In this document: in pieces, positions 14,374 through 38,855 of the stretch | Position numbering within the stretch: the first letter of the stretch is position 1 | Layout: the number at the start of each line of letters is the position of its first letter | NCBI GenBank assembly: GCA_963723995.1 | Contig: CAVRSZ010000001.1 | Span: forward strand, 1,581,410 to 1,645,409 | Direction of reading: 5' to 3' | DNA from: an uncultured Acidimicrobiales bacterium | Lineage (GTDB): Bacteria > Actinomycetota > Acidimicrobiia > Acidimicrobiales > SZUA-35 | Length of the DNA stretch: 64,000 nucleotides | Made by a program: the position numbers and the translations under genes | The notes under the pieces: model-generated | Databases searched by the model: none | Told to the model about the DNA's origin: nothing | The model's input: the letters and a program-made list of their open reading frames with translations, nothing else

Positions 14374-14445
14374 CGGGACGTCCCCTTAACCCGACGGACG
14401 ATTACAGCTGCGGGCGGCCGACCACCATGTCACCCCGGGCACCGC

Positions 14446-14473
14446 GATCACCGCGACCGAAGCCGCGGTGATC
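14446..14473 (-). terminator. Perfect 10-bp GC-rich hairpin between TasA-like gene and adhesin A (attenuator/processing site candidate)
   Basis: GATCACCGCG-accgaagc-CGCGGTGATC lies ~35 nt after the TasA-like stop codon. It has no U-tract. A paralogous hairpin sits at 25005..25042 in the same relative position. Confidence 0.4.
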
Positions 14474-14508
14474 ACCGTCTCAGGAGACATCATGGCCGCC
14501 ATGACTGG

Positions 14509-19487: not shown

Positions 19488-19837
19488 GTCCCGCTCGATC
19501 AGGTCGATACCTTCGATGGTGCCGCCGAGACCGACGTCGGCCAGGTCGGCCAGCTCGGTCAGAGGTCCCGGCCGTGGTGCCGAGACCGGTGGCGTCGACG
19601 GTGTAGCGCATCAGTCGTTTCGGATCCGACGACGACGAGAACAGGCAGCGTCCCCGGGGTGAGGAAGGTGTCACCGACGATGGTCGGCTGCCTCGACCAC
19701 GGTGAGGGCGTGGGCGGTGCCGGCCGACGCCGGGTTCTCCAGCAGGTAGTGGAACTCACCGGGCGACGACGGGTCACCGGGGGCATCGGGCCGGAAGACG
19801 AAGACATCGGAGTCGCTCACCGTGATCACCGTCGTGG

Positions 19838-21850: not shown

Positions 21851-21869
21851 CGTGACCAGGATCCCGTTG

Positions 21870-24869: not shown

Positions 24870-25004
24870 TGCGAACCTCCCTATCCCGTCGGGTCGAAGC
24901 CGGGCGTGCGGTAAGGAAACCAGGCCACAGGCGCAACAACTGGAAGCGGGGGTGAAGAGGAACAGCGGCAGGACCAGAGGTATGGCGGTGACGCCACCCG
25001 GGGC

Positions 25005-25042
25005 GCGGCGACCACCGCGGCCGAAGCCGCGGTGGTCGCCGC
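25005..25042 (-). terminator. Perfect 16-bp GC-rich hairpin between TasA-like gene and adhesin B (attenuator/processing site candidate)
   Basis: GCGGCGACCACCGCGG-ccgaag-CCGCGGTGGTCGCCGC lies 33 nt after the TasA-like stop. It has no U-tract. Confidence 0.45.
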
Positions 25043-25075
25043 ATCAGGAGACGTCGTTCCCGCCATCATCGGTGG

Positions 25076-25738
25076 TTACGGGTTGTTGGTGGTCTGCTCG
25101 GCGTCGAAGGTGAAGGTGGCCGTGGACGACAACCCCTGCACGGCATTCGATGCGGTGTTGGGTAGGGTCACGTTGAAGCAGAGGTTCTCGTTGGCGGTGG
25201 CCGCCAACACCCGGTCACCGGCCTGAGCCCCCTGGGTGGGGTCGCCGACGACATTGGCCGTACCGACGCTGCCGAGAATGCCGGCGTAGATCACCGAGCC
25301 GTCAGCCTGCCAGTTGGCGTCGTCGCAGGTGGTGACACCGGACTTGACCGTCAACACCAGCTCACCGGCCAGGGTGTCCTCGGTGGTGGTCGAGGTCATC
25401 GAGTACCGGAATTCGAGGCTGCCACTGTTCGACACGTTGATCGGGGCCGTGGCCTGATCACCGGGGACCATGTCGGTGGCGGTGACCACCGCCGTGGCCG
25501 GGGCCGCCACCAGGTCGATCGAGCCGGTGGAAAAGGCGTTGGCTCCCACCGCCTGCTGGTCGGTGAACAGCGCCAGCGACGACACGGTGAAGATGCCGCC
25601 GGCCAGGGCCAGGACGGCCAGGCTGGCCAGGATCCTGGTACCGGTTCGCTGCGGTCGGCCCGCCTCCTCATCGTGATCGGCACTCGGCAGCTGAGAGCCG
25701 TCGTTGTCAAGTTCGGGGGGTTGTGTTGTTGGTTTCAT
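25076..25738 (-). CDS. TasA/camelysin-like secreted protein with SipW-type signal peptide (paralogue 4)
   Basis: 220 aa, with 24 differences from the 14509..15171 product, half of them in the first 27 residues. It has the same LALFTDQQAVGANAFSTGSIDL motif. AGGAG lies upstream of the ATG. Confidence 0.8.
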   Translation of the reverse strand: MKPTTQPPELDNDGSQLPSADHDEEAGRPQRTGTRILASLAVLALAGGIFTVSSLALFTDQQAVGANAFSTGSIDLVAAPATAVVTATDMVPGDQATAPINVSNSGSLEFRYSMTSTTTEDTLAGELVLTVKSGVTTCDDANWQADGSVIYAGILGSVGTANVVGDPTQGAQAGDRVLAATANENLCFNVTLPNTASNAVQGLSSTATFTFDAEQTTNNP

Positions 25739-25804
25739 GGTGGGTCTCCTGATATTTCTCTCAATCGATTAATCGGCCGGTGATGGCCAATTTCCTAACT
25801 ATTG

Positions 25805-25815
25805 GGTGAGCTTGC
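25805..25815 (-). promoter_or_regulatory. Conserved 11-nt motif GCAAGCTCACC (minus strand) 67-77 nt upstream of the TasA-like start
   Basis: Identical to 15237..15247 at the same spacing. It lies in the 176-nt gap, the only sizeable gap between 37473 and 24869. Confidence 0.35.
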
Positions 25816-25914
25816 TTCGAAGCGCTGGGCCGCCGGAATCGGGGGATTCGGCCCGGGCCGGACGACCCATTGACCGGCGGCTCGCCGCACTCTGTCATTG
25901 GTTCGGTCATGGGG

Positions 25915-27744
25915 TCATGGCGCCCCCAGGAAGGTGAGGTCGGCGTCGGGTCCGAACGTCCCGGGCCGGTCCTGCTGGTCGACGGCGGTTGGATTGCCGT
26001 AGTAGAGGAACAATTCGGTGTCCGTGACCGAGGAGATCGCCGGAACCCGAACCCAGGCCCGGACCGAGCCGGTGGCCGGGTTGTAGCTCTCGATGGTGTG
26101 ATCCAGCCGGGTCACACCATCGGCGGCGGTGATCACCAGGTCGTCCCCGTCGGCCTGGGCTCCGGCCTGGACGTCGGTGTCATCAATGGCCAGATAGAGC
26201 ACGAAGTCGGTGACGTCGGCGTCGACCCGGTCGGCGTCGACCACGATCGGTTTGCGGTAGGCCCAGGTTCCGGCATCGAGCCAGGTTCCGACTTCGACCG
26301 GACCGGCCACGGTGAAGGAGGCAGGGGTGTCGTGGTTGGCCACCTCGGCCGCCAGCCACTCCGGCGACCGCACTGCGGTGACCAGCCGAACCTCGTCGAG
26401 CACGCCGTTGAAGGGGTCGGCCCCACCGGGAGCGGCCCCGATGGCCGTGGCGTCGGTGCTGGCAGGCAGGAGCCCGGCGGCCGGCTGCTGGGCCACCTGG
26501 ACACCATCGATGTAGAGCCGGATGACGGTGCCGTTCCAGGTGGCGGCAAGATGATGCCAGGTCCCGGCGGTGACGGTACCGCCCGACACCGTGACCGGAC
26601 CGTCGGCCGTGGTGTTGACGGTGGCCGAGGCCGTGCCCCCGGCGGCCACCGAGAGATCGAACCAGGTGGCCGCCCCTCGCTTGGTCACCACCACCGAATC
26701 GGCGACCACCGAATCGGCGACCACCCAGGCCGACATGGTCAACGAGCCTCGGCCCCCGAAGTCGACCGAGTCGACCGAGGCCCAGTCGTCGGAGCCGTCA
26801 AAGTCAAGGCCGTAGCCGATCCGTCCGGCAACGAGATCACCGGCCGTCATCGACCCCTGGCTCAGGCCGTCGAGATTGTTGATGGTGGAGTCGTCGATCT
26901 GGGGGGCGGTGCCGGCCGGATCTCGGGCCAGGTGCCACACCCCGGCCGCCTGCGGGGTCCACGTGGCTCTCACATCCTGCTGATCGGGAGCGTCGGCCGC
27001 CCCGAACACCAGGTAGACGGTGGTGTCGACCGACGACGACAGCACCGGCACCCGAACCCAGGTCTGCAACTCACCGGTGCCGGCGTCGAACCGTTCGATC
27101 TCGTGATCGAGCGGTGTCGTGCCGTCGGCGGCCACGAAACGGATGTCGGAGCCATCGGGCTGGGCCTGTACGGCGAGCGAACCATCGGTGATCGACACCA
27201 ACAAGGGGTAGTCGGCGAGATCGGCCTCCACCTGGGCGGCAGGCACCGTGATCGGAATACGACGGGTCCACGGGTCGGCCGAATACCAGGCGGTTCCGGC
27301 CGTACGGTCCTCGAAGTCGCCCAGGGTTCCGGAGTCGAAGTTCTCGGTGAGCAGGAACACGTTCTCGGGATCGTCGAGCACCGGAGCCGGGGAAGGATGA
27401 CCGAAGTACAGCCAGTAGCTGCTGATGCCCTCGGCCTCGATACCGGCCATCAGTCCGGAACAGGATGGTGGTGTCGGTCTGACCCCAGCCCGAGCCATCC
27501 TGCAGGACCCGGTCGAGTTCGATCCAGGCGGTCCCGTCCCAGCGCAGCACCCGAACGTCGGAGCCGTCGCCGACAGCGGCCCCGATGGCGACCAGGGCAT
27601 CGTGGTCGAAGGTGACGGGAACCGTGTAGCCGTTGGGAGCGGCTGCGGTGGAGGTCTCCACGTCGATGCGTTGGCGGAACAGATAGTTCGAGTCCCACCA
27701 CCCTGGGCCGGCCCATTCGATGACCTGCCAGGCGAAGGAGGCAT
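25915..27744 (-). CDS. C-terminal continuation: DUF2341 - LamG/ConA-like - DUF2341
   Basis: In frame from ~27455. Contains WTRRIPITVPAAQVEADLADYPLLVSI...DGSDIRFVAADGTTPLDHEIERFD...TWVRVPVLSS...VYLVFG (DUF2341-like), TAGTWHHLAATWNGTVIRLYIDGVQV (LamG), and a second YRKPIVVDADRV...DFVLYLAI...DHTIESYN...AWVRVPAISS...LFLYYGN. Confidence 0.65.
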   Translation of the reverse strand: MPPSPGRSSNGPAQGGGTRTICSANASTWRPPPQPLPTATRFPSPSTTMPWSPSGPLSATAPTFGCCAGTGPPGSNSTGSCRMARAGVRPTPPSCSGLMAGIEAEGISSYWLYFGHPSPAPVLDDPENVFLLTENFDSGTLGDFEDRTAGTAWYSADPWTRRIPITVPAAQVEADLADYPLLVSITDGSLAVQAQPDGSDIRFVAADGTTPLDHEIERFDAGTGELQTWVRVPVLSSSVDTTVYLVFGAADAPDQQDVRATWTPQAAGVWHLARDPAGTAPQIDDSTINNLDGLSQGSMTAGDLVAGRIGYGLDFDGSDDWASVDSVDFGGRGSLTMSAWVVADSVVADSVVVTKRGAATWFDLSVAAGGTASATVNTTADGPVTVSGGTVTAGTWHHLAATWNGTVIRLYIDGVQVAQQPAAGLLPASTDATAIGAAPGGADPFNGVLDEVRLVTAVRSPEWLAAEVANHDTPASFTVAGPVEVGTWLDAGTWAYRKPIVVDADRVDADVTDFVLYLAIDDTDVQAGAQADGDDLVITAADGVTRLDHTIESYNPATGSVRAWVRVPAISSVTDTELFLYYGNPTAVDQQDRPGTFGPDADLTFLGAP

Positions 27745-29548
27745 TCGACGCCATCACCGCCCGCTCGGCCGTGACCGTGGTCCCGTCGGTGATCTCGAAG
27801 GTGGCGGCCGCCTCACCCACCACGTCGTCGGCCACGTGGTCGGTGCGGCCACCGGCCACCGGGCCGGGCACGGCGACGGTGGAGATGGCGGTGGACCTGG
27901 AGGGGTCGAACGGTTCGACGGCGATCGGCTTCGACGACTCGCCGACGGCGAAGTCGACGACGCCATGCCGGACGGTGGTACCGTCCCGCAGATCGACCAC
28001 CTGCACCCGGACATCGAGCGGATCGCCGGCCACCGATCGGGTCACCTCGACGGTGCTGGAATCGGTCAGCCGGGCTCGGACCAGGCGCTCGCCGATATCG
28101 GCTCCCGTCGAGGCCGAGGTGACCGAGGCCAGCAGGAAGGTGTTGCCGGCTCGAACCGGCGAGCTCAGGACCCCGGAGTTGGCCGTGGCTCCCGAACCGA
28201 GGGAGACGTCAATGGTCTGAACCACGGCATCGGCCGGATCGGCGAAGGTCACCACCTGCCAGGCGAACGAGCGATCGGCGCCCAGGGCGGCCCCGGCCGA
28301 CTCGATGGTCAGATCGGACCCGGTGCCGAGATCGGCCCGGACCAGATCGTCGTACTCGAAGTCGCTGGAGGTCGCCGGGGGCGCGGTGCTCACGGTGACG
28401 AAACTGGCGGTGGGGTCCACGGCAGTCAAGGGCACCGTGACCGAGGGGGCGCCGGTGCCGCTGACCACGCCCCGCTGGACCGACACCCCACAGCCGTATT
28501 CGACCACCGACCACGCCACCACCACCGGCGGCGGTGAGCCGTTGTCGGTGTTGCGCACGATCTCGACCGCCGAGCCGTCGCCGGCCAATTGAACCTGGGC
28601 CGTGCCGTCGGCCGGCTCGTTGCCGCTGCTACGGACCGAGGCGAGCACGAACGACGTCGCCGCATCGACTGCAGTGATGGGCACGGTCACCGTTCCGGTC
28701 ACGGCATGAATCGATTCGCCGTCCTGGACCGAGGCCAGTTGCGGATCGAAACAGTCGGCCGAACCGAAGACGTTGTCGGGGACGGCCTCGGTGGTGGTGA
28801 ACAAGGCCCACGCCACACCTAGTCCGGCCATGGTCAACATCGGGGCCACGCCGAGGGTGGCCAAGCGTCGACGCCGCCGGCCACGGCCGGAGCCTCGGAC
28901 ACGACGACCGAGCCGGGAGGCACCGTCATCGACCCTGTTCCTTGGGCTCGTCGAACCGGCAGGCGACGCACCGACCGGGGAGGCCGACGAGCCGGTCCAG
29001 ATCCAGCGCAGAGCCTGGAACGTGAGCACAATGGTGGCCAGTGCCACCAAGGCCAGTGCCGGCCCGGGCTGGAACACGGTCATGACCCAACCCCCGAGGC
29101 GGGGGTAGATCCAGCGACCAACCAGCTCCTGGCCACCGTCGAGCGGGTAGGGGGCGGCGTCAGGGGCCTCGTTGGCGTCGCCCTGGGTAATGGCGAAGCG
29201 AGAACCACCGTTGGCCTCGATCTCGATCACCCGGTGGGTGATGGGGGCCTCCCCGGGCCGCCTCATGACCAGGATGTCCCCGACGGCCACGGCGCCGGCC
29301 TGACGGGGTTCGGCCACGATCAGGCTCCGAGGGGGTGCGGTCTCGCCCATCGATCCGGTGAGGATGACCACCGGACGGTAGCCGGCGATGAGACCACCCA
29401 CGACGGCGCCGGTGCCCAGGATCGTCGCCACCGAGACCGCGACCAGCAGCCACGACATGACTCGGCGGAGCGGGCTCCGCTTGGCTGTCCGGCGCCCGGC
29501 CGGAGCGGTGTTCCCGCCCGATGTCGTTCGCCTTCGACCCGTTCTCAT
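27071..29548 (-). CDS. Signal peptidase I (ER/SipW type) + passenger, N-terminal two thirds
   Basis: A TM segment (SWLLVAVSVATILGTGAVVGGLIAG) is followed by the SPase boxes VVILTGSMGE (Ser), APITHRV (His) and ITQGDANEAPD. A second TM follows, then an internal signal-like RRRRRLATLGVAPMLTMAGLGVAWALFTTTEAVPDNVFGS (28759..28900). After that come repeated ~110-aa beta-rich units (...SFAWQVV... appears twice). Confidence 0.7.
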   Translation of the reverse strand: MRTGRRRTTSGGNTAPAGRRTAKRSPLRRVMSWLLVAVSVATILGTGAVVGGLIAGYRPVVILTGSMGETAPPRSLIVAEPRQAGAVAVGDILVMRRPGEAPITHRVIEIEANGGSRFAITQGDANEAPDAAPYPLDGGQELVGRWIYPRLGGWVMTVFQPGPALALVALATIVLTFQALRWIWTGSSASPVGASPAGSTSPRNRVDDGASRLGRRVRGSGRGRRRRRLATLGVAPMLTMAGLGVAWALFTTTEAVPDNVFGSADCFDPQLASVQDGESIHAVTGTVTVPITAVDAATSFVLASVRSSGNEPADGTAQVQLAGDGSAVEIVRNTDNGSPPPVVVAWSVVEYGCGVSVQRGVVSGTGAPSVTVPLTAVDPTASFVTVSTAPPATSSDFEYDDLVRADLGTGSDLTIESAGAALGADRSFAWQVVTFADPADAVVQTIDVSLGSGATANSGVLSSPVRAGNTFLLASVTSASTGADIGERLVRARLTDSSTVEVTRSVAGDPLDVRVQVVDLRDGTTVRHGVVDFAVGESSKPIAVEPFDPSRSTAISTVAVPGPVAGGRTDHVADDVVGEAAATFEITDGTTVTAERAVMASNASFAWQVIEWAGPGWWDSNYLFRQRIDVETSTAAAPNGYTVPVTFDHDALVAIGAAVGDGSDVRVLRWDGTAWIELDRVLQDGSGWGQTDTTILFRTDGRYRGRGHQQLLAVLRSSFPGSGARRSRERVPAHRELRLRNPGRLRGPYGRNRLVFGRPVDPSYSDHGACRPGGGRSRRLPLVGVDHRWFARRTGPARWLRHPFRGRRRHDTARSRDRTVRRRHR

Positions 29549-30264
29549 TCCTCGACCTCCAGGTTGGAACCGTTGACGACCGCGTCGGACCGAGTCGCGG
29601 CCGGCGAGTGTTGGGCGAAGACGACCAGCTCGATGTCGAGCCGGGCGTCCTGGGTCTCGTTGGGGGCGGACAGCGGCAACCGGGCTCCAAGACACACCAT
29701 GGTCGACTGGTCGGGCTCCAGCCGCAGTCCCGGTGTGTCGGTCCCGGGTCGACCGAGGATGGGAACCTCATCGCCACCGAGGATGAGGTTGGTGATGTAG
29801 ACCTCATCGGCGGCGGCAATGCCGTCGCGGCATCGTTCGGCTCGCCAGACGTCGTACAGCAACCAGTCGGCCAGCGGCGACGAGGCCGGGGAGGCCGACG
29901 CCGTCATCCAGTATCGGATGGGAAGCGTGCCGGTGTTGCCCACGGCCAGTGCCCCGGTGACCGAGTCGCCCGGTGCCATGTTGGTGGCCGAGAACGGCTG
30001 GGGTGCACTCGGCGTGGTGGGACGTCCATTCAGCACGGAGATGCCATCGACATCGACGGCCTCGCTGACGGCCAGCTCCACCGATCCGGCACCGAGCCGG
30101 TTCCCGGTGAACTCCTCCCGGTCGGCAAAGTTGGCGTCCGACGACAAGGCGCATCGGCTGAGCAACCAGGGCAGGGCCACCACCGCCAGCACCACCAGGA
30201 CGGACACCGAGGGTGACATGCGGACACGGCGAAACGATGTCGGTTCGATCTCGGAACCGGTCAT
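29545..30264 (-). CDS. TasA/camelysin-like secreted protein (paralogue 3, divergent)
   Basis: 239 aa. The hydrophobic segment VSVLVVLAVVALPWLL is followed by SSDANFADREEFTGNRLGAGSVELAV and NMAPGDSVTGALAVGNTGTL. There are ATGA overlaps at both ends. Confidence 0.65.
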   Translation of the reverse strand: MTGSEIEPTSFRRVRMSPSVSVLVVLAVVALPWLLSRCALSSDANFADREEFTGNRLGAGSVELAVSEAVDVDGISVLNGRPTTPSAPQPFSATNMAPGDSVTGALAVGNTGTLPIRYWMTASASPASSPLADWLLYDVWRAERCRDGIAAADEVYITNLILGGDEVPILGRPGTDTPGLRLEPDQSTMVCLGARLPLSAPNETQDARLDIELVVFAQHSPAATRSDAVVNGSNLEVEE

Positions 30265-30869
30265 GCCGGCTTCACCTCCCAGATGAACCCGACGCTGGCG
30301 GCGCGCCCCAGCGCCTCCTCTCGATCCTGGAGGGCGAACCGGACCCGGTAGGTGCGGGAGTCACCCTGATTGAAGAATCGCTCCAGCTCGAGCCGGTTCC
30401 GGTCCAGTTCGTCCAGCGTGCCGTCGAACACCAGCCCGGAGGACACAAAGCCGTCGCAGTCACCGAAACCCCCCGATGGCCCCCGCTCGATGAGCACATC
30501 GAGAAATGGGGCGAGATCGCCGGTGATCTCGGCCTTCATGGTCAGATCGACCGGCACGATGGTTCCGCCGTAGGAGATGTTGATGCACTCCTCGTTGGCT
30601 CGACCGGGAGCCATATCGGTCAGATCGAACAGCGAGCTGCCGTTGTCGTCGTCGGACAGTTCGATGGTCCCCGACGTCACCTCCGATGCGGTCGTGGTGC
30701 CCTGAATGTCCAGGGCCTCGCCCGAACGGCTGATGACGAAGGTGGCGATGAGCAGGGCGGAAAGGGCGGCGGCGAACGCCCGGGCCGTGCCCTGATTGAC
30801 CCAGGTTCCCTGGGCCTCATCCTCCACATCGTTGGATCGGAGGTCTTCGAGGGTCAACGGACGAGCCAC
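30261..30869 (-). CDS. TasA/camelysin-like secreted protein (paralogue 2, divergent)
   Basis: 202 aa. The hydrophobic segment FAAALSALLIATFVI is followed by TTTASEVTSGTIELSD and DMAPGRANEECINISYGG. A GTG start lies 7 nt after an AGGAG that spans the upstream stop codon. Confidence 0.6.
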   Translation of the reverse strand: MARPLTLEDLRSNDVEDEAQGTWVNQGTARAFAAALSALLIATFVISRSGEALDIQGTTTASEVTSGTIELSDDDNGSSLFDLTDMAPGRANEECINISYGGTIVPVDLTMKAEITGDLAPFLDVLIERGPSGGFGDCDGFVSSGLVFDGTLDELDRNRLELERFFNQGDSRTYRVRFALQDREEALGRAASVGFIWEVKPA

Positions 30870-30878
30870 GGTGTACTC

Positions 30879-33800
30879 CTAGTGCGGCGAGACGGTGCTG
30901 GCCGCCGCAAGCTTGGCCTCCGGCGCCGGCGGTATCGGAGGACGGGCCGACCGGGCGATGTTTTCCCGAGCCAGGAGATCGGCCAGCTCGGCGGAGGTCA
31001 TGGGCCGATACAGGCCGTAGCCCTGCAGCAGGTCGGCACCGGCAGCCATGACCGCCGTTTTGTGACCTTCGGTCTCGACCCCTTCGGCCACCACCTCGAA
31101 ACCGAGGTTGTGGCCCAGTTCGACGACCGAGTTCAAGATGATGCGGTCCGAGTCGCTGGTGCAGGCCTGATGGACCAGCATTCGATCGAGCTTCAGCTGG
31201 CGAATGGGGAGACGACGGAGGTGACCGAGTGAGGTCCGCCCCTCGCCGAAGTCGTCCAACGACAAACCCACGCCCAGCCTGACCAGTTCGGTCACCACCT
31301 GTTCCAGGTCGTCGCCCGATGCCACGATGCGCTCACTGAGCTCCACCACCACCTGGCTTGGCCGAACCCCGGTCAGCAGCAGGGCATCGCCCAGGTTGGG
31401 AATCAGCGTCGGCGACGACAGTTCGGCCGGTGAGGCGTTGATGGCCAGCGTGAACGGTCGCTCACCGGAGATCGGCCAACGGCTCATTTCACCCAGCGCG
31501 GTGTGGACGATCCAGCCGTTCAGTTCACTGACCAGATCGGCCTGCTCGGCCATCTGCAGCGCCATGCCCGGTCCGAGCGCACCCAACTCGGGGTGATTCC
31601 ACCGGAGGAGAACCTCGGCACCCATGATGCGGTGACCGACGGTCGAGACCAGGGGTTGGAACACCAGGTCGAGGCCGTCGTGTTCGAGAGCCCGCTTGAA
31701 CTCGCCGACCAGGCGGCCCCGGCGGGGTTCGGCCAGGTCGAGATCGGCGTGATAATAGGAAACCCGGCGGGACGACGACGACTGCTTGGCTGCGTACATG
31801 GCGGCATCGGCCCGTCGCAACCACTCGCTGGAATCGACGCCGTCCTCGTGGAAGGCGATGCCGATACTGGCACCGACCACCACCGTGTCCTGATCGAGTT
31901 CGATCGGTTCGGCCAGCGCGGCGTGAATGGCGCTGGCCACGTTCGAGGCATCACCGCCCCGGCACCGTGGCAACAGCACGGTGAACTCGTCCCCGCCGAG
32001 GCGGGCCACCAGACCAAAGGAATCGGCGACGGTCTGCAACCGCGTGGCCACCACCTTGAGCAGTTCGTCGCCGGCATCGTGACCAAGGGTGTCGTTGACC
32101 GGCTTGAACCCGTTGAGATCGAGGAACAGCACGGCCATCATGTCATCCGGACCCCGTTCGGCCATCGCTTCGGGCTCCAACTCCCGGCTGAGCTCCCGAA
32201 GGAAGTAGGCCCGGTTGGGCAGGCGGGTCAGGGCGTCATGCAGGGCCTGGTGTTCGAGTTCGGAATGCAGGTCCTTCAGCTCGTTGACCAGATCCCGGTT
32301 CTGGAGGGCAACGGTGGCCTGGCCGCACAGCAGTCGAAGGGCCTCGACCGGTCCGGCGTCGAAGGGACGGCCCACGAAGTTGGCACCTCGGAGCACGATC
32401 AGGGTCTCGTCGGTGGAAAGGGTGATGCGAACCAGGGCGTCCAGGCCGGCCTCGAACAGACCCTCGACCTCCTGTCCGTCGCCGTCGCTGCCGTCGACCA
32501 ACACCTCGGGGTGGGGCAGATCGACCATGCGCAGCCCGCTGGCGGGCTGCCCGGGCTGGGGCAGATGCCGGGCATACAGTTCCTCGGATACTTCGATTCG
32601 GGTCCAGCCGCCGGTCGGGGTACGGGCCCATGCATCAACGACGTCGAACCCGAGGCTTGCCGCCGATTTGGTCAGGGTCTCGAACAGGGCCGTTCCGATC
32701 CTGGTCACTTCGAATCCCAGCTCGGCCACGTTCTCGAGCAGGCGTCCCCGGGCCACGGCATCAACGGTGGCCCGACGCTGCAGGATGACATCGCCCAGAA
32801 GCTGCTCGGCCAGGAAGGCACCGGGAATGACCACCAGCAACAGCACACTCATCTGATCCAGGAGCTGCTCCAGTTCACCGATCAGCTGGTTCGAGGGGCT
32901 GTCGATACTGTTGAGAATCCAGACCCGTCCAAGAATGGTGAGCACCGCCATCAGCATCCAGTGGACGAGGGCTCCGGCCAGGCGGTATCGGACCGCGGCC
33001 TCCACGATGGGAAGTGCGGTCAGCACCCAACCGATGCCGGAACCGCCGGTGGCGGTGGTCAACAGCACCACCAGCAGGGTGTCGGCCACCAACTGAAACA
33101 GACCGACCCATTGGCTCTCCCCTACCTGATCGAGCCGACCCGAGACCACATTGGTTCCGGCCAACCACAGCAGCGAGAGCGCCAGAAGCTGGGCCGGCCC
33201 GATGTTGACGGCCTCGATGACGAAGCGGCTGCCATCGATGGCGTACTGACCGGTGATCATGACCGCGATCAGGATGCGGACCCGTCGAACAGCCTGATCG
33301 GCCAGAGTCGAGGTGCGCTCGTTCAGCAGGGCCTTGATCCGCCGCTTGCGACTACTGAGATCCCGAACGGCGATGCCGATGGCGGCCAACGACAGCACGG
33401 CGAAGGCGCCAAGTGACACCAGGTCGGCCCGGCCCAACCAGACCGCGGGAAGCCCGATAAGGGGGATGACGAGTCGGGCCGCACCAATGACCGAGGCGGC
33501 GGGAACAAGGTCGGTATCGGGTGTGGGATTGGCGTCGCCCTTGGTGACATAGGCCTCTTTCTCCTCCAACACCTCGAAGACCCGGTGCGTGATGATGTCA
33601 CCGTCACGGTCGAAGGTGATCACCGATCGCTGGCCCAGGAGCTCATCCGGTCGATCCTCGATCATCACCACATCGCCGGGGCGCAGCACCGGGGCCATCG
33701 AGCCGGAGACGATCACCACCGGATTCCAGCCGGCGCCCAGGGTCACGATGACCACCCATAGCCCGAGCATGCCGGCCAGGTAGAGGTAGATCCACGAGAT

Positions 33801-33899
33801 CAGGGACACCACGGGAACGAACCGTCCATGACCGATGAGGGCTGGAATACCCGTCCTCACCACGGCGGGTCGGGCCGGGCTGAAGCGTTCCACGTTCAC
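30879..33899 (-). CDS. Fusion protein: SipW/archaeal-type signal peptidase I - polytopic membrane domain - GAF-like - GGDEF - EAL
   Basis: 1006 codons, with a GTGA overlap with the upstream gene. SPase boxes: VVIVSGSMAPVLRPGDVV, GDIITHRV, TKGDANPTPD. About 6-7 hydrophobic helices span aa ~140-365. The GGDEF domain reads RLGGDEFTVLL (nt 31983..32000). The EAL domain carries EVLLRW, AINASP, ELSE, DDFGEG, KLDR, EGVETE and QGYG. Confidence 0.8.
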   Translation of the reverse strand: MNVERFSPARPAVVRTGIPALIGHGRFVPVVSLISWIYLYLAGMLGLWVVIVTLGAGWNPVVIVSGSMAPVLRPGDVVMIEDRPDELLGQRSVITFDRDGDIITHRVFEVLEEKEAYVTKGDANPTPDTDLVPAASVIGAARLVIPLIGLPAVWLGRADLVSLGAFAVLSLAAIGIAVRDLSSRKRRIKALLNERTSTLADQAVRRVRILIAVMITGQYAIDGSRFVIEAVNIGPAQLLALSLLWLAGTNVVSGRLDQVGESQWVGLFQLVADTLLVVLLTTATGGSGIGWVLTALPIVEAAVRYRLAGALVHWMLMAVLTILGRVWILNSIDSPSNQLIGELEQLLDQMSVLLLVVIPGAFLAEQLLGDVILQRRATVDAVARGRLLENVAELGFEVTRIGTALFETLTKSAASLGFDVVDAWARTPTGGWTRIEVSEELYARHLPQPGQPASGLRMVDLPHPEVLVDGSDGDGQEVEGLFEAGLDALVRITLSTDETLIVLRGANFVGRPFDAGPVEALRLLCGQATVALQNRDLVNELKDLHSELEHQALHDALTRLPNRAYFLRELSRELEPEAMAERGPDDMMAVLFLDLNGFKPVNDTLGHDAGDELLKVVATRLQTVADSFGLVARLGGDEFTVLLPRCRGGDASNVASAIHAALAEPIELDQDTVVVGASIGIAFHEDGVDSSEWLRRADAAMYAAKQSSSSRRVSYYHADLDLAEPRRGRLVGEFKRALEHDGLDLVFQPLVSTVGHRIMGAEVLLRWNHPELGALGPGMALQMAEQADLVSELNGWIVHTALGEMSRWPISGERPFTLAINASPAELSSPTLIPNLGDALLLTGVRPSQVVVELSERIVASGDDLEQVVTELVRLGVGLSLDDFGEGRTSLGHLRRLPIRQLKLDRMLVHQACTSDSDRIILNSVVELGHNLGFEVVAEGVETEGHKTAVMAAGADLLQGYGLYRPMTSAELADLLARENIARSARPPIPPAPEAKLAAASTVSPH

Positions 33900-34465
33900 G
33901 GCCTGGCCTCCACGATCAGTGCGAAGTCGGTGTAGCGACCCTCGGCATCGGGGTCATCGAGCAACTCGGCTCGGGCCGCCAGGGTGACTCGGCTTCCCTG
34001 CTCGATTCCCGTTCCCAGAACCAGCCCGTCGGCGTAGCTGCCGTGGGTCTGCCACATCTCGGTCAAGGTGCCGTCCAACGCCGGGTCGGGCGGTGGCCCC
34101 TCGGTCGGACACGGTTCGTCGCTGGTCCACACCTGGAAGCGGATGTAGCGGTCCAGCTCGGTTCCCCCCAATCGACGACCGTGGAGGCGAAGATCGGCTT
34201 CGATCGAACCCCGATAGATCACCTCGACACAGGCGTCGGTGAACGAGCCCGGGTACAGCTCGTCCTCGTTGAACAGCAACTCCACCGCATCCCCGACCTG
34301 GTCGAGTTCGATCGACCCGGCACTGAAGAGTCCCGCGGTCGAGGTCGAGGCCGAGACCTCGGCCTGACTGGTGCGGATGCCGTTGATCACAACGACGCCG
34401 GCGGCCAGCACAACAATGGCGGCCGCCAGCCGACGCCCGGCGGCGAACCAACGTTCCGCCGTCAT
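33896..34465 (-). CDS. TasA/camelysin-like secreted protein (paralogue 1, divergent)
   Basis: 189 aa. The hydrophobic segment LAAAIVVLAAGVVVI is followed by AEVSASTSTAGLFSAGSIELDQ and ELYPGSFTDACVEV. There is an ATGA overlap with the upstream gene. Confidence 0.6.
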   Translation of the reverse strand: MTAERWFAAGRRLAAAIVVLAAGVVVINGIRTSQAEVSASTSTAGLFSAGSIELDQVGDAVELLFNEDELYPGSFTDACVEVIYRGSIEADLRLHGRRLGGTELDRYIRFQVWTSDEPCPTEGPPPDPALDGTLTEMWQTHGSYADGLVLGTGIEQGSRVTLAARAELLDDPDAEGRYTDFALIVEARP

Positions 34466-37400
34466 TGGTCGCCGTCCTGTTCCGCACCGACCGGCGTCTC
34501 CTCGCCCGCTTCGCCGCCACCCGGCGTGGGCCCCTCGACCTCGTTGCCCTCGACCTCGTTCCCGTCGACCTCGCCACCCCCGACCTCGTTCCCGTCGACC
34601 TCGCCACCCCCGACCTCGCTATCCCCGACCTCGCTGCCCTCGACCTCGCTACCCTCGACCTCGTTCCCGTCGACCTCGTTGCCCTCGACCGAGTCGGGGC
34701 TCTCGGTACCCCCCTGGGGGATGCTGGAACCATCTGCCGGGGTCGTGACATCGGCCGCCGTCCCCGGGGTCGCGGCATCACCGACAGCGGCCACGGTCAC
34801 GCCGCCGGCGCCGATGGTGACGAGCTGCCCTGCGCCGACCTCGATCCGCTCGATGGTGAATGCGTCACCGGCGCCGGGAACGGGATCGTCGGGACTTCCG
34901 GCGCCGACCCCGGGGTCGGTCGAACCGGCCGCCGGGGTGATGCGAACGGTGTAGCGACCGGGAACCAGGATCTCGCCGTCAACCGCCGCCCGCCACCGGC
35001 CACCGGGGCCGACCAGCTCGACGGTACCGGCATCGAGACCGGCATCGGTTTCGATTCGCAGCCGGCTCAGAACCAGGGTGGCGTCGTCGGGTATGGGTGC
35101 GACGTGGCGATCGGGCCCCAGGGAGACCTCGATCAGCGCCTCGCCCGACCATGCGGCCACCGTGTCGGGGCGCAGGAATCCGCCGCTACCGTCGCCCTCC
35201 AGCGGTTCCGACCAGGCGTCGGTGTAGACCCGCAGTCGAAGATCGTCCTCGGCCACAAACGGGCCGGCCGATCCGGCGCCGTCGCCCACGTCGTCGTCGA
35301 GAGAGGGAACCAGCACGGTCAGGATGGGAGGGATGGTGGCCGAACCCTGCTCACCGGGCTGAGCCGACGCCGGTCCGGCCACAGGGCCCAGGAACAGGGC
35401 GAGGACGGCGGCCACCGTGGCCACCGCCGCCAGCAGTCTGAGCAAGTTGAGGTCGCTGCGGGAGAAGCCGGTTGACAGATCCTCGGGGTGGGAGTGGGCT
35501 ATCGCCGATTCACCAGCCTGCCACCCGCCGTCCGATCTCGAGTTGTGGAACGATCCCCTTCCGGCCGCATCGTGACCGACCTCGAACGCGTCGTGGGCAC
35601 CGAGGGCACAGTACTCACCGAGGGCACAGTACTCGGTGAGCGCGATCCGGTCGTCGTCGCTCAGCTCCTCGAACTCCATTCCCACCCGCACCAATCCCGA
35701 CTCGTGCCGGGTGGCGGCCCGGACCCGGGCCGTCGTGGCGACGCCGTGCTCGGTGCCGTCGGCCCTCGGTACCGAGAAGCGGATGGAAACGGTCTCGTCC
35801 AGAGCGGGGGCCGATTCGAGCACGGCACCGACGCCGACCGGGGTGACATCCAGGGTGGTTCCCCGCCGGCCGGCCAACGTGATCCCGGCCTCGAGCGGAA
35901 CACGGGGAGCGCGGCGGCGCTGGCGGTGCCATACCAGCGCTCCGAGCACGTCGACCAGGATGTAGGTCGTCGCCAGGGCCACCAGGATGAGCACGGTGCT
36001 GTGCCGACGGGTCATGGCCGGCAACAGCGTGGGGTAGACGGTGTTGAAGGCTCGGGCGGCGAAGGCCACCTCGAAGAAGCTGAAAACCACGACCAGGACC
36101 TGGAGCTGACCCAGTGCGTCGCGACGACCCTGGCTTCGAACACGGTCCCGCCGATCAGGCAGGGGCGACACGGTCGGGGCGAGGGCGGCCAGGTCGGCCC
36201 CCAAGGTTCGCCAGCCGTGACGGGTCCAGTCCCCGAACGACATGATCCCACCCGACAGCAGGCGCCGGGCCGTCATGTTGGCGGCGGCGAAACCAACCAT
36301 GGCCGTCACAACCGTGGTCAACTCGCCCTCAAATGGCAGCCGACCCAGAAGCAGAGCCGCGGCCAGCACCGAAGTGACGGCCAGCTGGCGTATGCCGTAG
36401 GTCAGCGACACCCCGGCGGCCATGGCCGCCCACCGGGCGGTGCGGGTCACACCACGGGTGGTGAAGGCCGCCCCCAGGCTGATCAGGGCCGCCGCGCTGC
36501 GGTCACGGCGAGCCACCAGGTAGGGCTGGAGCGTATCGGGTGCCAGGTCCCGAATGAGGGGCCGCGAATCGTGGCCGGTGGACCAGCCATCCCGATGGAG
36601 GGCGACGGCCCACTCCGGCACCATCCAGTAGGAGGGGGCCTGGTCGACCAGGTCCCTCAGCGCAGCGCGTCGAACCAGCGAAGCCGGGCCCCGCCATGGG
36701 GCAACTCCCCGACTGGCCAGGGCCGGACCGATCAGCTGACGTTCCAGGGCTTCCTCGTCACCACCCCGTTTGAGATGGAACAGCGAGTTGGGATTGAGCA
36801 GACCGACGGCCAGCTGCCGGACGGCAGCACGGTCATCGATCGGCGAGTCGACCACGGCGTCGAACAGTCGGGGCATGGGAACCTGACCCGCCTGCAGCCA
36901 CAACAACCACGCCCCGTCGCCGATGTCGGCCATCGAGGGCAGCGGGCTGACTGCGCTCGAATGGTCGATCCCCAATTCGAGCCGAAGTGCAGTCGTTGAA
37001 TCGAAACGATCGATGACGGTCTGGACATCGGGATCGACCCGGCCGGTCAGCACGGTCGTCGTGCGCTGCCAGCCGGTGACGGCGAGACCGACCATGGTGC
37101 GCTCCAGATCGGTCGCCGTCGACTCGGGACCGACCGTGATCACGACGTCGATCTCATCCCGGTCGATGCGGGAACCGGCGTCGACCGGTCGGCGTTTGGG
37201 CACGACCTGGAATCGAAACAGCAGGAGCTGAACCCACGACCAGATCTCGGCCCACAGCACCGGCAACGACAGGGCCAGGATCCAACCCCGTCCAATGGTG
37301 GTGGTCCGCCAGGCCAGATAACCCAGACCGGCGACGAGCACGACGGCCACGACCAGACGCGTCAGAAGGGTCACATCGACCGGTGCGTCGGGGTCGACCT

Positions 37401-37473
37401 GACGGTGATCGGCGGCCGGGGCCACAAGGCCCGAACGACCGGTGGTCGGTTGATCGGAAGGGGATGCGTGCAC
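34462..37473 (-). CDS. BcsA-like (GT2 fold, catalytic motifs degenerate) membrane protein with PilZ domain and extracellular acidic-repeat C-terminus
   Basis: 1003 codons; GTG start with GAGG 5 nt upstream. The arrangement of TM helices and IDVVITVGPES ... LWLQAGQVP (where DxD is expected) ... ALHRDGWST ... DLAPDTLQPYLVARRDRS (where QxxRW is expected) is collinear with cellulose synthase BcsA as I remember it. PilZ motifs: RRRAPR (RxxxR) and DVTPVG (D-x-S/T-x-x-G), at nt ~35637..35925. A late TM/signal-like segment (LLRLLAAVATVAAVLALFLGPVAGPASA) is followed by ~300 aa ending in EV[EDG]G[NSG] pentapeptide repeats. Confidence 0.65.
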   Translation of the reverse strand: MHASPSDQPTTGRSGLVAPAADHRQVDPDAPVDVTLLTRLVVAVVLVAGLGYLAWRTTTIGRGWILALSLPVLWAEIWSWVQLLLFRFQVVPKRRPVDAGSRIDRDEIDVVITVGPESTATDLERTMVGLAVTGWQRTTTVLTGRVDPDVQTVIDRFDSTTALRLELGIDHSSAVSPLPSMADIGDGAWLLWLQAGQVPMPRLFDAVVDSPIDDRAAVRQLAVGLLNPNSLFHLKRGGDEEALERQLIGPALASRGVAPWRGPASLVRRAALRDLVDQAPSYWMVPEWAVALHRDGWSTGHDSRPLIRDLAPDTLQPYLVARRDRSAAALISLGAAFTTRGVTRTARWAAMAAGVSLTYGIRQLAVTSVLAAALLLGRLPFEGELTTVVTAMVGFAAANMTARRLLSGGIMSFGDWTRHGWRTLGADLAALAPTVSPLPDRRDRVRSQGRRDALGQLQVLVVVFSFFEVAFAARAFNTVYPTLLPAMTRRHSTVLILVALATTYILVDVLGALVWHRQRRRAPRVPLEAGITLAGRRGTTLDVTPVGVGAVLESAPALDETVSIRFSVPRADGTEHGVATTARVRAATRHESGLVRVGMEFEELSDDDRIALTEYCALGEYCALGAHDAFEVGHDAAGRGSFHNSRSDGGWQAGESAIAHSHPEDLSTGFSRSDLNLLRLLAAVATVAAVLALFLGPVAGPASAQPGEQGSATIPPILTVLVPSLDDDVGDGAGSAGPFVAEDDLRLRVYTDAWSEPLEGDGSGGFLRPDTVAAWSGEALIEVSLGPDRHVAPIPDDATLVLSRLRIETDAGLDAGTVELVGPGGRWRAAVDGEILVPGRYTVRITPAAGSTDPGVGAGSPDDPVPGAGDAFTIERIEVGAGQLVTIGAGGVTVAAVGDAATPGTAADVTTPADGSSIPQGGTESPDSVEGNEVDGNEVEGSEVEGSEVGDSEVGGGEVDGNEVGGGEVDGNEVEGNEVEGPTPGGGEAGEETPVGAEQDGDQ
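34531..34690 (-). repeat. About 10.5 tandem copies of a degenerate 15-bp unit (cctcgacctcgttgc-like) encoding EV[EDG]G[NSG] pentapeptides
   Basis: Read directly from the sequence: ...ctcgacctcgttgccctcgacctcgttcccgtcgacctcgccacccccgacctcgttcccgtcgacctcgccacccccgacctcgctatccccgac... Confidence 0.85.
35598..35633 (-). repeat. Perfect 18-bp tandem duplication (caccgagggcacagtact x2), in frame (EYCALG-EYCALG)
   Basis: Read directly from the sequence. It lies immediately C-terminal to the PilZ domain. Confidence 0.95.
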
Positions 37474-37522
37474 GATTGCCTCAGAACTGTTCTCCCTCGA
37501 TCATCGGCACATGGCCGACGCC

Positions 37523-37565
37523 CATTGAGTAGTCACCCGGGTCGGCCGCACTATTTGACTCAATG
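37523..37565. promoter_or_regulatory. 8-bp perfect inverted repeat CATTGAGT-N27-ACTCAATG, 50-90 nt upstream of the operon start
   Basis: Read directly: 37523..37530 and 37558..37565. Confidence 0.25.
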
Positions 37566-37721
37566 ACCGATGACCCTTGGGTAGAACACCTTCCACCGAC
37601 ACTCATGTCGGGGCCGTTCGGCCCATGTTCGTATGGAGCGGGCGACCCCGACCCCGGTTCCGGCGGCGCCGAATCATCGACCGTCGATCGGTGCCGGCGC
37701 CGTGTCGGCCTGTGAGTTTCG

Positions 37722-37794
37722 AGTGGACAACCAGTGGGTTTCTCCACAAAATCTGGGGACATCCAAGAAAGTCTGCGGACAACCCTGGGGATAT
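37722..37794. promoter_or_regulatory. Cluster of five DnaA-box-like 9-mers
   Basis: The five 9-mers are: 37722..37730 rc TTGTCCACT; 37740..37748 TTCTCCACA; 37754..37762 rc ATGTCCCCA; 37774..37782 rc TTGTCCGCA; 37786..37794 rc ATATCCCCA. They match the actinobacterial consensus TTGTCCACA at 7-8 of 9 positions. A TTGACG hexamer follows at 37806..37811. Confidence 0.3.
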
Positions 37795-37989
37795 CGAAAA
37801 AGCCCTTGACGCCCTCTCGGCGGCATGTCACGATGCCTATCACTCAGGTGAACACCAGCCGATCGACGGGGAACGGCGACAGCGAATCGGGTCAAACCGA
37901 GACGAGGTCGACGGGCTCCCGAAGGCGGAAAGGCTCATCTGATAGAGGTGGTTTCCCCTCGACGACCGACGGTCAAGGTTTCGGACTCC

Positions 37990-38385
37990 GGTCCGGAATC
38001 CGATCACGGGCTTCGGCCCGGGATCCGGTGTCAAGCTTCGGCTCGAGATCGGATCGGCGGTTGTCACGGCGCCCCCGCAGGTCTTCGGATCGCTGGGACG
38101 GCGACAGGGAGCGATGCTTCGGCCCAGCGCACTGCTACGGCAAATTGGTCAACCGGTGGCTCCACCGGACGATCACGAACTGTAGCGACGCCCACAAGGC
38201 GGCGTTGGTGAAACAGCGTTCACATATGAGAACTGCCCGCCGGGCTCACGCACGACGGGCAGTGATAAACACTATCGGTACTGACAGTACACCTGAACAG
38301 GTCGATAGTGGTGGATCCACCTCGAACTTGATGGCGCCTCCGGTTCGTCGGCTTCGGCCGACATCTCCGGAGGCGTCAACTTTTT
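37990..38385 (+). ncRNA. Candidate structured RNA (unknown family); boundaries uncertain
   Basis: CTTCGG occurs five times, each time capping a possible stem: 38007..38020 CGGGC-UUCG-GCCCG; 38034..38043; 38080..38091; 38111..38130; 38347..38362 GUCGGC-UUCG-GCCGAC. The region ends in a terminator-like hairpin with a U5 run. It has no protein-like ORF. Confidence 0.2.
38335..38385 (+). terminator. Terminator-like compound hairpin followed by TTTTT
   Basis: The 9-bp outer stem CGCCTCCGG/CCGGAGGCG (38335..38343 / 38367..38375) encloses the 6-bp GTCGGC-ttcg-GCCGAC. A T5 run lies at 38381..38385, 5 nt after the stem. Confidence 0.4.
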
Positions 38386-38820
38386 CCCGAAGCCACCGGG
38401 TATCGGTGAAGGAGATCGTGTCGGGCCACGAGCTAGGGGTGGCCCGGCACGCTCCCCGCGTCACCGGGTCGGGGCGTCCGAACCAACCATGCGACGGCCC
38501 GCAACGGCATCTCGTCCTGCGGCAGATTCGTGCCACAAAGATCTCGATGTGGATCCCCAACACCCTGCCTTGTCGAACCCCGCAGAGTCCGCTGGTTGCT
38601 CGATCATTCAACATTGCGGCACGTCTCAGGAACGTTCGCCCGCAGGCCGAACTTCAGGCCGGCCTCGGCCGGCGGCAGGTGCTCGAGGACTTCGGGTTCA
38701 GGTCCGTGGGCTGGCGATCAGCGAGTCACGCCCACATGAGGACCGTTCCGGCCCAGTACACGCCCCACACTCCATCGGATGTGAACTAATAGATTCACCT
38801 GAAATAGTTGCTAGGAATGC

Positions 38821-38849
38821 TTGTTTATCGAACATGTGTTTGCTATAGT
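38821..38849 (+). promoter_or_regulatory. Sigma-70-type promoter giving a leaderless mRNA for the HNH gene
   Basis: TTGTTT (38821..38826), a 17-nt spacer, then TATAGT (38844..38849). The ATG at 38856 begins 7 nt after the -10 element. The local sequence is AT-rich. Confidence 0.5.
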
Positions 38850-38855
38850 GAAGGC

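Follow-up and report, generated by a model that had tools for sequence, protein, structure and literature searches.

A candidate TasA-type fibre and adhesin locus combining fused signal peptidases with c-di-GMP domains in an uncultured Acidimicrobiales bacterium

Fibres of the TasA type are a widespread matrix scaffold, and we know of no post-transcriptional control acting on their secretion or assembly. In the LapD-LapG-LapA system of Pseudomonas, cyclic di-GMP (c-di-GMP) acts through a membrane GGDEF-EAL protein to control proteolysis outside the cytoplasm, on which the fate of a giant adhesin depends, and receptors of the LapD type carry degenerate GGDEF and EAL motifs. The Acidimicrobiales are abundant, little-studied Actinomycetota of aquatic environments and soils. 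Here we describe a locus from an uncultured member of this order (SZUA-35 in GTDB), situated in a stretch of 64,000 nucleotides (nt), hereafter the window, which spans positions 1,581,410 to 1,645,409 of contig CAVRSZ010000001.1 (assembly GCA_963723995.1) and has a G+C content of about 67%. The locus comprises six consecutive, tightly packed minus-strand genes (G1 to G6) within positions 25915-37473 of the window, followed on the same strand by the smaller genes G8 and G14 and by two giant adhesin genes. We read its function from the sequence, and consider that it probably constitutes an Acidimicrobiales-specific cluster for a TasA-superfamily extracellular fibre and adhesins, provided with a c-di-GMP circuit of its own.

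Loci for TasA-superfamily fibres with a dedicated peptidase are already known. Besides a major subunit and minor ones, they encode a signal peptidase and a tip protein (PMC11821415; bioRxiv 10.64898/2026.01.04.697558), and in two of them TapA or TafC is proposed to supply the initiating donor strand (PMC11821415). The TIGR02228 peptidases of the tapA-sipW-tasA, AbpA/AbpX and Tafi-type loci sometimes carry extra transmembrane helices or fused accessory domains (PMC11821415; bioRxiv 10.64898/2026.01.04.697558), and the neighbourhoods of bacterial abpX genes 'frequently' encode diguanylate cyclases and HD-GYP proteins (bioRxiv 10.64898/2026.01.04.697558). A different means of monitoring an extracellular polymer is provided by PilS, which reads PilA and thereby senses the pilin inventory (PMC6058289).

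The likeness of the present locus to the tapA-sipW-tasA operon of B. subtilis lies in three features: in both a dedicated peptidase gene of the endoplasmic reticulum (ER)/archaeal type adjoins genes for TasA-fold subunits; in both an accessory protein (TapA in B. subtilis, the passenger domain of G6 in the present locus) has a strand similar to the N-terminus of the subunit; and G8 belongs to the Peptidase_M73/TasA family, its mature N-terminus aligning with that of TasA. The differences are that there are here five TasA-like paralogues rather than one, two peptidases, each fused to other modules, domains for c-di-GMP synthesis, breakdown and sensing within the operon, giant adhesin genes, and an actinomycetotal host. 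With the AbpA/AbpX bundling pili and the haloarchaeal Tafi system (tafA-G) the locus has in common a scheme in which a major subunit is accompanied by minor ones, by a tip or initiator protein and by a TIGR02228 peptidase dedicated to them. It departs from those systems in that its c-di-GMP enzymes form one in-frame polypeptide with the peptidase and are not encoded by adjacent genes, that a second peptidase carries the tip-like passenger, and that a PilZ-bearing pseudo-glycosyltransferase is added; no DUF5305 accessory was detected. In addition, a profile of the five small proteins of the window is nearer to TasA (5OF1/8AUR, E 7.5e-5) than to AbpX, which it matches only at E 0.24. The unusual part consists of the fusions in G3 and G6 and of a dead BcsA serving as the putative PilZ receptor.

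The genes G1 (34462-37473), G2 (33896-34465), G3 (30879-33899), G4 (30261-30869), G5 (29545-30264) and G6 (25915-29548) are joined, as read directly, by four start/stop overlaps of 4 nt, namely ATGA at 34462-34465 (G1/G2), GTGA at 33896-33899 (G2/G3), ATGA at 30261-30264 (G4/G5) and ATGA at 29545-29548 (G5/G6), and the 4-nt overlaps are retained in a short-read metagenome-assembled genome (MAG; L084). G3 and G4 are separated by a spacer of 9 nt (GAGTACACC). A preliminary description of this stretch had claimed this packing, and the overlaps and the 9-nt gap stand as it gave them; the AGGAG which it had placed inside the gap (30870-30878) sits at 30876-30880 and overlaps the TAG stop of G3 by the final two bases of that codon, so that it lies only partly in the gap. 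The gene contents that it had assigned, comprising a PilZ domain on a BcsA-like scaffold, a predicted GGDEF-EAL enzyme, two ER/SipW-type signal peptidases, three small TasA-like proteins and a DUF2341/LamG passenger in the operon, with two further TasA-like genes and two giant adhesin genes downstream, are likewise recovered by the analyses set out below, with the qualifications that G1 is an accessory gene whose glycosyltransferase (GT) motifs are lost, that G6, taken there as a single open frame, is frameshifted in the window, and that both adhesin genes are broken by frameshifts. An Rfam scan of the whole window matched no c-di-GMP riboswitch and no other RNA, and a consensus scan of 24800-38600 for promoters and terminators yielded nothing informative, the number of terminators being at the level of shuffled sequence.

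The product of G3, of 1006 amino acids (aa), is predicted to join an S26B (ER/archaeal/SipW-type) signal peptidase to a PilS-like region of six transmembrane segments, a GAF-like region, and GGDEF and EAL domains. The peptidase catalytic domain (33429-33809), which would be extracytoplasmic, matches TIGR02228 over aa 31-157 at 76.5 bits (trusted cut-off 51.85); its closest solved structures are human SEC11A and SEC11C (E 1e-8), its SGSM, ITHRV and KGDAN aligning with the SGSMEP, IVHRV and KGDNN of SEC11A, and Peptidase_S26 is matched in seven of eight G3 homologues. Judged by such motifs, the peptidases of both G3 and G6 are of the Ser-His(-Asp) type and not of the Ser-Lys dyad type. The SipW equivalog model NF046067 (cut-off 190 bits) does not have G3 among its matches and scores G6 at 36.6 bits (E 3e-9), and by sequence the two are the same type of enzyme as SipW without being its orthologues. 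After the peptidase, six further hydrophobic segments can be discerned by reading, of which a simple hydropathy scan resolves fewer; the sole recurrent Pfam families in this middle region are 6TM_PilS and GAF_2, which 6 of 45 orthologues match in either case, at best E values of 5.9e-5 and 5.3e-4, respectively.

The output domains of G3, presumably cytoplasmic, occupy 31002-32246 and are recognised both by Pfam and by their motifs: GGDEF (31773-32246; PF00990, 143.5 bits, aa 552-709) and EAL (31002-31703; PF00563, 196.7 bits, aa 733-966). The window has RLGGDEF intact, as does each orthologue whose open reading frame (ORF) reaches the domain, and EAL motifs of the E[AV]LLR type occur in nearly all orthologues; in the window the EAL motifs read EVLLR, DDFGEG, EGVE and QGY, with DDFGEG and EGVE also present in most or many of the orthologues. 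On this evidence both domains look catalytically competent. Neither the sequence nor a motif check of the orthologues revealed an RxxD I-site in the GGDEF domain. The NCBIfam matches of G3 include LapD, as a generic GGDEF-EAL match.

The second peptidase is fused to a protein which may be its own substrate. G6 encodes an S26B peptidase matching TIGR02228 over aa 54-138 at 52.0 bits, marginally above the cut-off, with the motifs TGSMG, ITHRV and QGDAN present in all orthologues, followed by an Arg-rich linker, a putative internal signal peptide and a passenger of about 950 aa. The passenger consists of three beta repeats, two DUF2341 stretches (together 91.5 bits, threshold 23.4) and a LamG domain (Laminin_G_3, 96.7 bits, threshold 27.6), the latter matches falling in the second of two frames, since in the window G6 is split: by tblastn it runs in frame -1 from 29548 to about 27452 and then in frame -2 from about 27441 to 25915. 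The site of the frameshift (27441-27452) contains one extra base by blastn, the window reading 'CGGACTGATGGCCGG' against 'CGGACCGA-AGCCGC' in L085, which among relatives with long contigs is the closest (its operon is 86-90% identical in nucleotide sequence) and in which G6 is a single ORF of 1181 aa. It is likewise a single ORF of 1167-1221 aa in about 22 relatives, and the common architecture of all 22 full-length orthologues comprises the peptidase, a second transmembrane segment, a variable linker with an Arg-rich end, a third hydrophobic segment and the motif '(A/S)W(A/S)L(F/Y)..(..)V..N.F.T..C(F/W)D', which resembles both the 'SLALFTD..V..N.F.TG' of G8 and the N-terminal region of mature TasA. 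In the window this third segment and the TasA-like mature N-terminus lie at 28760-28864, with a cleavage position that would fall between LATLGVAPMLTMAGLGVAWA and LFTTTEAVPDNVFGSADCF.

Two related loci bear on how this fusion should be read. In L055 the passenger is a separate gene (L055:5827-9351) upstream of G2, with an N-terminal signal peptide that ends 'ISFALFDDTDDVGANTFDTTDCF', and the second peptidase is a stand-alone protein of 220 aa (L055:14029-14691), an arrangement that represents the unfused state of G6. Because the motif thus spans a genuine N-terminal signal peptide and the start of the mature protein in L055, and resembles those of G8 and TasA, we read the third segment of G6 as an internal signal peptide of the SipW type. 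In L054 a continuous ORF of 358 aa (L054:4728-5804) joins a peptidase, an Arg-rich linker, a signal peptide and a G8-like TasA protein, and is either a natural fusion of enzyme and substrate or an assembly artefact. The sequence of the G6 passenger suggests that it is a substrate fused to its own peptidase and is probably cleaved in cis. What the passenger has in common with the subunits is the N-terminal strand only and not the TasA domain, so that it could donate but not accept a strand, and by analogy it is probably a cap, initiator or anchor like TapA or TafC. TapA itself gave no family match in the Pfam and NCBIfam scans of the operon proteins, with the inclusion of a TapA model in these libraries left unchecked, and the passenger is proposed as a functional analogue of TapA only. 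A literature search on the DUF2341/LamG combination returned irrelevant papers only.

The candidate subunits are five small proteins, each with one N-terminal hydrophobic segment (a signal anchor). The two encoded downstream of the operon, G8 (25076-25738) and G14 (14509-15171), are 89% identical in amino-acid sequence and are direct members of the family by Peptidase_M73 (PF12389, threshold 22.5 bits), at 39.2 and 43.9 bits, respectively; G8 also matches TasA (NF046066, E 2.4e-5) and, at 17.4 bits (E 0.0038) just under the cut-off of 19, the SipW-cognate signal peptide model TIGR04088, for which the others have no match. The three operon proteins, G2 (189 aa), G4 (202 aa) and G5 (239 aa), all predicted to be secreted, are connected to G8 by hhalign comparison of full-length orthologue-group profiles (E values: G5-G8 7e-40, G2-G4 1.5e-29, G2-G8 7e-11, G4-G8 1.6e-8). 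G5 is nearest to G8 (28.7% identity over 188 aa by BLASTP), and the L084 orthologue of G5 matches PF12389 weakly, while G2 and G4 form a subfamily in which Peptidase_M73 is the sole recurrent Pfam family, weakly matched in 12 of 51 G2 and 16 of 49 G4 orthologues. The same family is again the sole recurrent one among 125 distant relatives of the G2/G4 type, matching 31 of them (best E 2e-7), within a larger family of 2,327 clusters at 50% identity (E <= 1e-3) whose sampled members mostly lack Pfam annotation. Of the AlphaFold2 models, that of G4 (predicted local distance difference test score, pLDDT, 76.6) has as its top two fold matches in the PDB the TasA structures 5OF1 and 5OF2 (E 2e-5), and that of G2 (pLDDT 82.3) finds in TasA 5OF2 the highest TM-score (template modelling score, 0.48) among the matches listed. 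By these profiles and models, G2, G4, G5, G8 and G14 are TasA/camelysin-fold paralogues.

Across species G8 is the best conserved of the small proteins of the locus (50-82% identity, against 27-63% for G2, G4 and G5), and by sequence it is the probable major fibre subunit, with G2 a probable minor or accessory one. A DDDxG motif placed directly behind the first strand is invariant in the G4 group, and a pair of Cys residues is invariant in G4 and G2 alike; the wider family of more than 2,300 clusters shows both features, its consensus being 'G.V.L.DDD.G...C...C'. By analogy with AbpX these features may correspond to a calcium site and a disulfide, and no link could be made between the DDDxG of G4 and the residues of the AbpX calcium site.

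G1 encodes a BcsA-like membrane protein of 1003 aa with a PilZ domain (35623-35922). Residues 518-617 match PF07238 at 31.1 bits (gathering threshold 22.5), and both PilZ motifs are intact: RxxxR (R520...R524) and D-x-T-x-x-G (D542...G547), the latter reading D542-V-T-P-V-G547, in which Thr replaces Ser and both D and G are invariant. Residues R519, R520, R524, D542, G547 and G549 are invariant across ten homologues, and the region aligns to the PilZ motifs 'RRAAPR' and 'DAStSG' of BcsA. A PDB sequence search with G1 alone gave no match to BcsA, so that a family profile, built from its ten known homologues, was needed to reveal the homology; this profile matches BcsA (4HG6/4P00/5EJ1, E ~2e-23; E. 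coli BcsA 7LBY, E 1e-20) across the GT, transmembrane and PilZ regions, and also the YpfA PilZ structure 5VX6 (E 2.7e-6). What G1 retains of BcsA are the RxxxR and DxSxxG-type motifs. What it lacks are the catalytic ones: the DxD site is lost, BcsA 'FDADHVP' corresponding to 'LWLQAGQVP', of which AGQVPMP is invariant in the family; the catalytic Asp of TED aligns with Val (Val or another residue across the family); and QxxRW is lost, 'QQRGRW' corresponding to 'ARRDRS', with R and W replaced in all ten homologues. Its score against the CelA model TIGR03030 is 36.4 bits, far under the equivalog cut-off of 699; GT2 Pfam matches occur in five of the ten homologues, and neither BcsB nor any other cellulose gene is found here. 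Because the GT motifs are lost and the PilZ motifs kept, we regard G1 as a pseudo-glycosyltransferase with a retained c-di-GMP sensor. Going by its sequence, it is a homologue of BcsA and not a cellulose synthase, and a probable c-di-GMP receptor.

In further distinction from BcsA, the PilZ domain of G1 is followed by an additional transmembrane helix (aa 677-695), a conserved domain of about 200 aa, predicted to be extracellular, and an acidic repeat tail. Three peculiarities of this part of the gene may be mentioned. Just after the PilZ domain, at about 35590-35630, there is an in-frame tandem duplication of six residues (EYCALG EYCALG) which the homologues lack; the tail (about 34519-34690) is an expanded repeat of the (G/D)xEV(E/D/G) type, varying in length among close relatives; and the helix (35380-35445, aa ~677-699) is followed by 'GPVAGPASA' and 'QP', with a junction between the two that resembles a signal-peptidase cleavage site. 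The extracellular domain of G1 might itself be released by cleavage.

The conservation of the locus extends across the order. In a set of 5.8 billion proteins, the peptidase/six-transmembrane/GAF region of G3 shares words with only 15, all in MAGs of Acidimicrobiia, and a scan of the GTDB species representatives located about 56 loci with the full G3 region (best 92% identical), whose labels nearly always read Acidimicrobiales, Acidimicrobiia or Actinomycetota. Among the carriers of the core are the Ilumatobacter MAGs L022, L028 and L039. The order G2-G3-G4-G5-G6-G8 is kept in about 50 Acidimicrobiales species representatives. Counting as denominators only loci with enough flanking sequence, G2 (52/52), GGDEF (53/53), EAL (52/52), G4 (48/48) and G5 (48/48) are universal, the G6 peptidase (44/47), the G6 passenger (29/39) and G8 (35/38) are frequent, and G1 occurs in 19 of 46. 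Where G1 is missing (27 loci), the region upstream of G2 holds no alternative PilZ or conserved gene, the genes present being unrelated housekeeping, regulator and adhesin genes only. One genome of 5.17 Mb carries the system in two parts, [G2-G3-G4-G5] in L010 and, about 240 kb away, [G1-G6-G8] with an adhesin gene of 7333 aa in L083, where G1 and G6 overlap by 4 nt. A further, minimal arrangement, at L060:9761-12769 in another Acidimicrobiales MAG, has an ORF for a 262-aa peptidase overlapping one for a 569-aa transmembrane GGDEF protein without EAL, followed by a gene for a 205-aa TasA-like protein, which suggests that the triad of peptidase, cyclase and TasA-like protein exists in simpler forms too.

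How might these components operate together? Precursors would leave the cytoplasm through Sec and be processed by the two dedicated peptidases, with G3 cleaving G2, G4 and G5, and G6 cleaving its own passenger and G8. G8 could then polymerise by N-terminal donor-strand exchange in the manner of TasA, with G2, G4 and G5 serving as minor subunits, initiators or adaptors, and the released lectin-like passenger would donate its TasA-like strand, capping or anchoring the fibre as proposed for TapA and TafC. G3 would tie the synthesis and hydrolysis of c-di-GMP to the site, and perhaps the load, of precursor processing, and G1, where present, would read c-di-GMP through its PilZ domain and pass the signal through the membrane to the module of G6, G8 and adhesin. 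Evidence for such a pairing of modules comes from the genome in which [G2-G3-G4-G5] lies apart from [G1-G6-G8-adhesin]. In its most complete form, this proposal amounts to a self-contained and largely post-translational circuit for a Gram-positive matrix fibre, in which G3 senses the pool of uncleaved precursors in the membrane by means of its peptidase and PilS-like six-transmembrane region and makes a local c-di-GMP signal, which is read by the PilZ domain of the dead-BcsA G1 and relayed outward via its extra transmembrane and extracellular parts, gating the G6-dependent cleavage, release or anchoring of a lectin-tipped fibre and adhesins; this complete wiring we offer as a tentative and rather doubtful extension.

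Several observations weigh against the proposal of a fibre cluster with its own c-di-GMP circuit. The relatives are, without exception, uncultured MAGs. In G3 the assignments to PilS and GAF are weak, being confined to the few orthologues noted above. G2, G4 and G5 of the window have no direct Pfam match, remaining below the M73 threshold; their TM-scores to TasA are only 0.4-0.5; and searches of PDB sequences with the G2 and G4 orthologue profiles found nothing, TasA included, for which reason profile-profile comparison and fold search were needed. G1, missing in 27 of 46 loci, cannot be a universal receptor. Finally, with G6 and both adhesin genes frameshifted, this genome might hold a system in decay.

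The last point can be pressed further, to the reading that the frameshifts are real and that the locus is inactive and being lost in this organism. Consistent with this are the 1-nt insertion in G6 relative to L085, the several frame changes in each adhesin gene and the lower-GC HNH endonuclease gene inserted just upstream, which L085 does not have. The frameshift in G6 is either an assembly error or a recent pseudogenisation; it concerns only a single base, however, and single-base frameshifts interrupt G6 and the two adhesin genes, whereas G1-G5 (about 7.9 kb) are intact. Moreover, sister long-read MAGs contain similar scattered frameshifts at other positions, which indicates assembly error, likely the origin of the frameshifts in G6 and the adhesin genes alike. 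An inactive locus is improbable. Another reading dispenses with the fibre altogether, the small proteins being secreted or wall-associated monomers of the camelysin kind (proteases, coat or surface-layer proteins) and the locus a cluster for the maturation of surface proteins and adhesins. Pfam does label Peptidase_M73 as a metallo-endopeptidase, and the G2/G4 subfamily is highly divergent from TasA; against this, the mature N-terminus of G8 matches the N-terminal region of TasA, the characterised TasA-superfamily relatives cited polymerise by donor-strand exchange, and several paralogues together with a passenger that has the N-terminal strand only fit a scheme of major, minor and tip components. 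We hold the absence of a fibre to be unlikely. That G1 is an active c-di-GMP-gated polysaccharide synthase, the operon yielding exopolysaccharide as well as protein fibres, might be argued from a BcsA homology spanning the GT, transmembrane and PilZ regions and from the GT2 matches in half of the family. This candidate was rejected upon the loss of the DxD (now the invariant AGQ), TED (Asp to Val or another residue) and QxxRW (R and W replaced in 10/10) motifs, and the operon is without other polysaccharide genes; such an activity is very improbable indeed.

More closely related to the favoured proposal, with which it overlaps in part, is a reading that keeps the fibre and reverses the direction of the signal. 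By analogy, G3 may work either outside-in, the load of precursors altering c-di-GMP as in PilS/PilA, or inside-out, c-di-GMP gating the peptidase as in LapD. In the latter case G3 would chiefly be a protease under c-di-GMP control, and c-di-GMP from elsewhere in the cell, bound at the EAL or GGDEF domain, would shift the six-transmembrane/GAF region and switch the extracellular peptidase, thereby deciding the maturation of the subunits. The logic is similar to that of LapD-LapG-LapA in coupling intracellular c-di-GMP to extracytoplasmic proteolysis, and is made conceivable by the single polypeptide that links cytoplasmic GGDEF-EAL domains, via a membrane module, to an extracytoplasmic protease; LapD is among the NCBIfam matches, albeit generic. 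There is room for this reading because most loci lack G1, and the 27 of 46 without a PilZ protein would require another receptor. On the other hand, the GGDEF and EAL motifs are intact wherever covered, in contrast to the degenerate receptors of the LapD type, which favours G3 as an enzyme; G3 is devoid of an RxxD I-site, and its peptidase is unrelated to LapG. The Pseudomonas system also differs in that protease and signalling protein are there separate, and here belong to one polypeptide in a monoderm host. An inside-out mode is a genuine possibility, if a minority one. The outside-in alternative draws on the weak match of the G3 six-transmembrane region to the PilS transmembrane domain and differs from PilS-PilA in that the output of G3 would be c-di-GMP turnover without a histidine kinase, the subunits being TasA-like and not type IV pilins.

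Downstream of the operon, the G8-type gene and a giant adhesin gene are duplicated in tandem (15357-25738 and 3730-15171). Adhesin gene A (approximately 15357-24869, minus strand) encodes an NHL propeller, DUF7948, beta-helix/CSLREA, cadherin/Big_9 and LamG modules, and adhesin gene C (approximately 3730-14373, minus strand) NHL, DUF7948, FG-GAP and beta-helix/NosD modules, the two having NHL/DUF7948 N-terminal parts in common and differing in their C-terminal modules. Gene A is interrupted by several frameshifts and gene C by at least two, as seen by ORF tiling and by tblastn with intact homologues; the positions in the two genes are ~21860, ~21000-20250, ~19500, within 15357-19487, ~12800 and ~9750. 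In L085 a single ORF of 2768 aa occupies the position of adhesin A, and a giant adhesin gene follows G8 in those related loci whose gene tables were examined. The adhesin starts (24869 and 14373 in the window; L085:22385; L083:17408) share the unusual conserved sequence 'MVD..NPP', and between it and the hydrophobic core lies a long N-region rich in Arg. That the adhesins begin with a TasA-like donor strand was considered and rejected, their N-termini consisting of 'MVD..NPP' and an ordinary signal peptide, with no consistent motif across loci. On the other side of the operon, the 1.3 kb upstream of G1 contain no recognisable gene and nothing common to any related locus. Beyond them lies the HNH endonuclease gene (38808-40079, plus strand), in a stretch (38001-40000) of 63% GC, which looks like a recent mobile insertion beside the start of the operon; the genes further on (thioesterase, DUF427, amidohydrolase, pirin and MarR) have the identical order in L085.

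The preliminary description had termed this an export locus, which overstates the case, there being no dedicated translocon, only signal peptidases acting after presumed Sec export. Its view that the combination was undescribed holds to the extent that, in a non-exhaustive search of the literature, we found no description of this Acidimicrobiales operon and no paper on a fusion of signal peptidase with GGDEF-EAL, on a peptidase fused to a tip-like substrate, or on a catalytically dead BcsA as PilZ receptor in a TasA-type locus; neither was a named system found to which the operon could be assigned, and the similarity of its small products to TasA is recovered by profile as well as by fold, that of the two N-terminal modules to S26B peptidases by profile. 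However, the combination is not without precedent, because the 2026 preprint on abpX notes c-di-GMP genes beside bacterial loci of the TasA superfamily (bioRxiv 10.64898/2026.01.04.697558).

In this context the locus can be regarded as offering three natural experiments, namely the fusion of a signal peptidase to a cyclase/phosphodiesterase, the fusion of a peptidase to its presumed substrate, and the reuse of a cellulose-synthase scaffold as a non-catalytic PilZ receptor. If the proposed wiring is true, second-messenger control would be exerted at the step of signal-peptide cleavage, and the Acidimicrobiales would possess a defined module for adhesion and biofilm formation.

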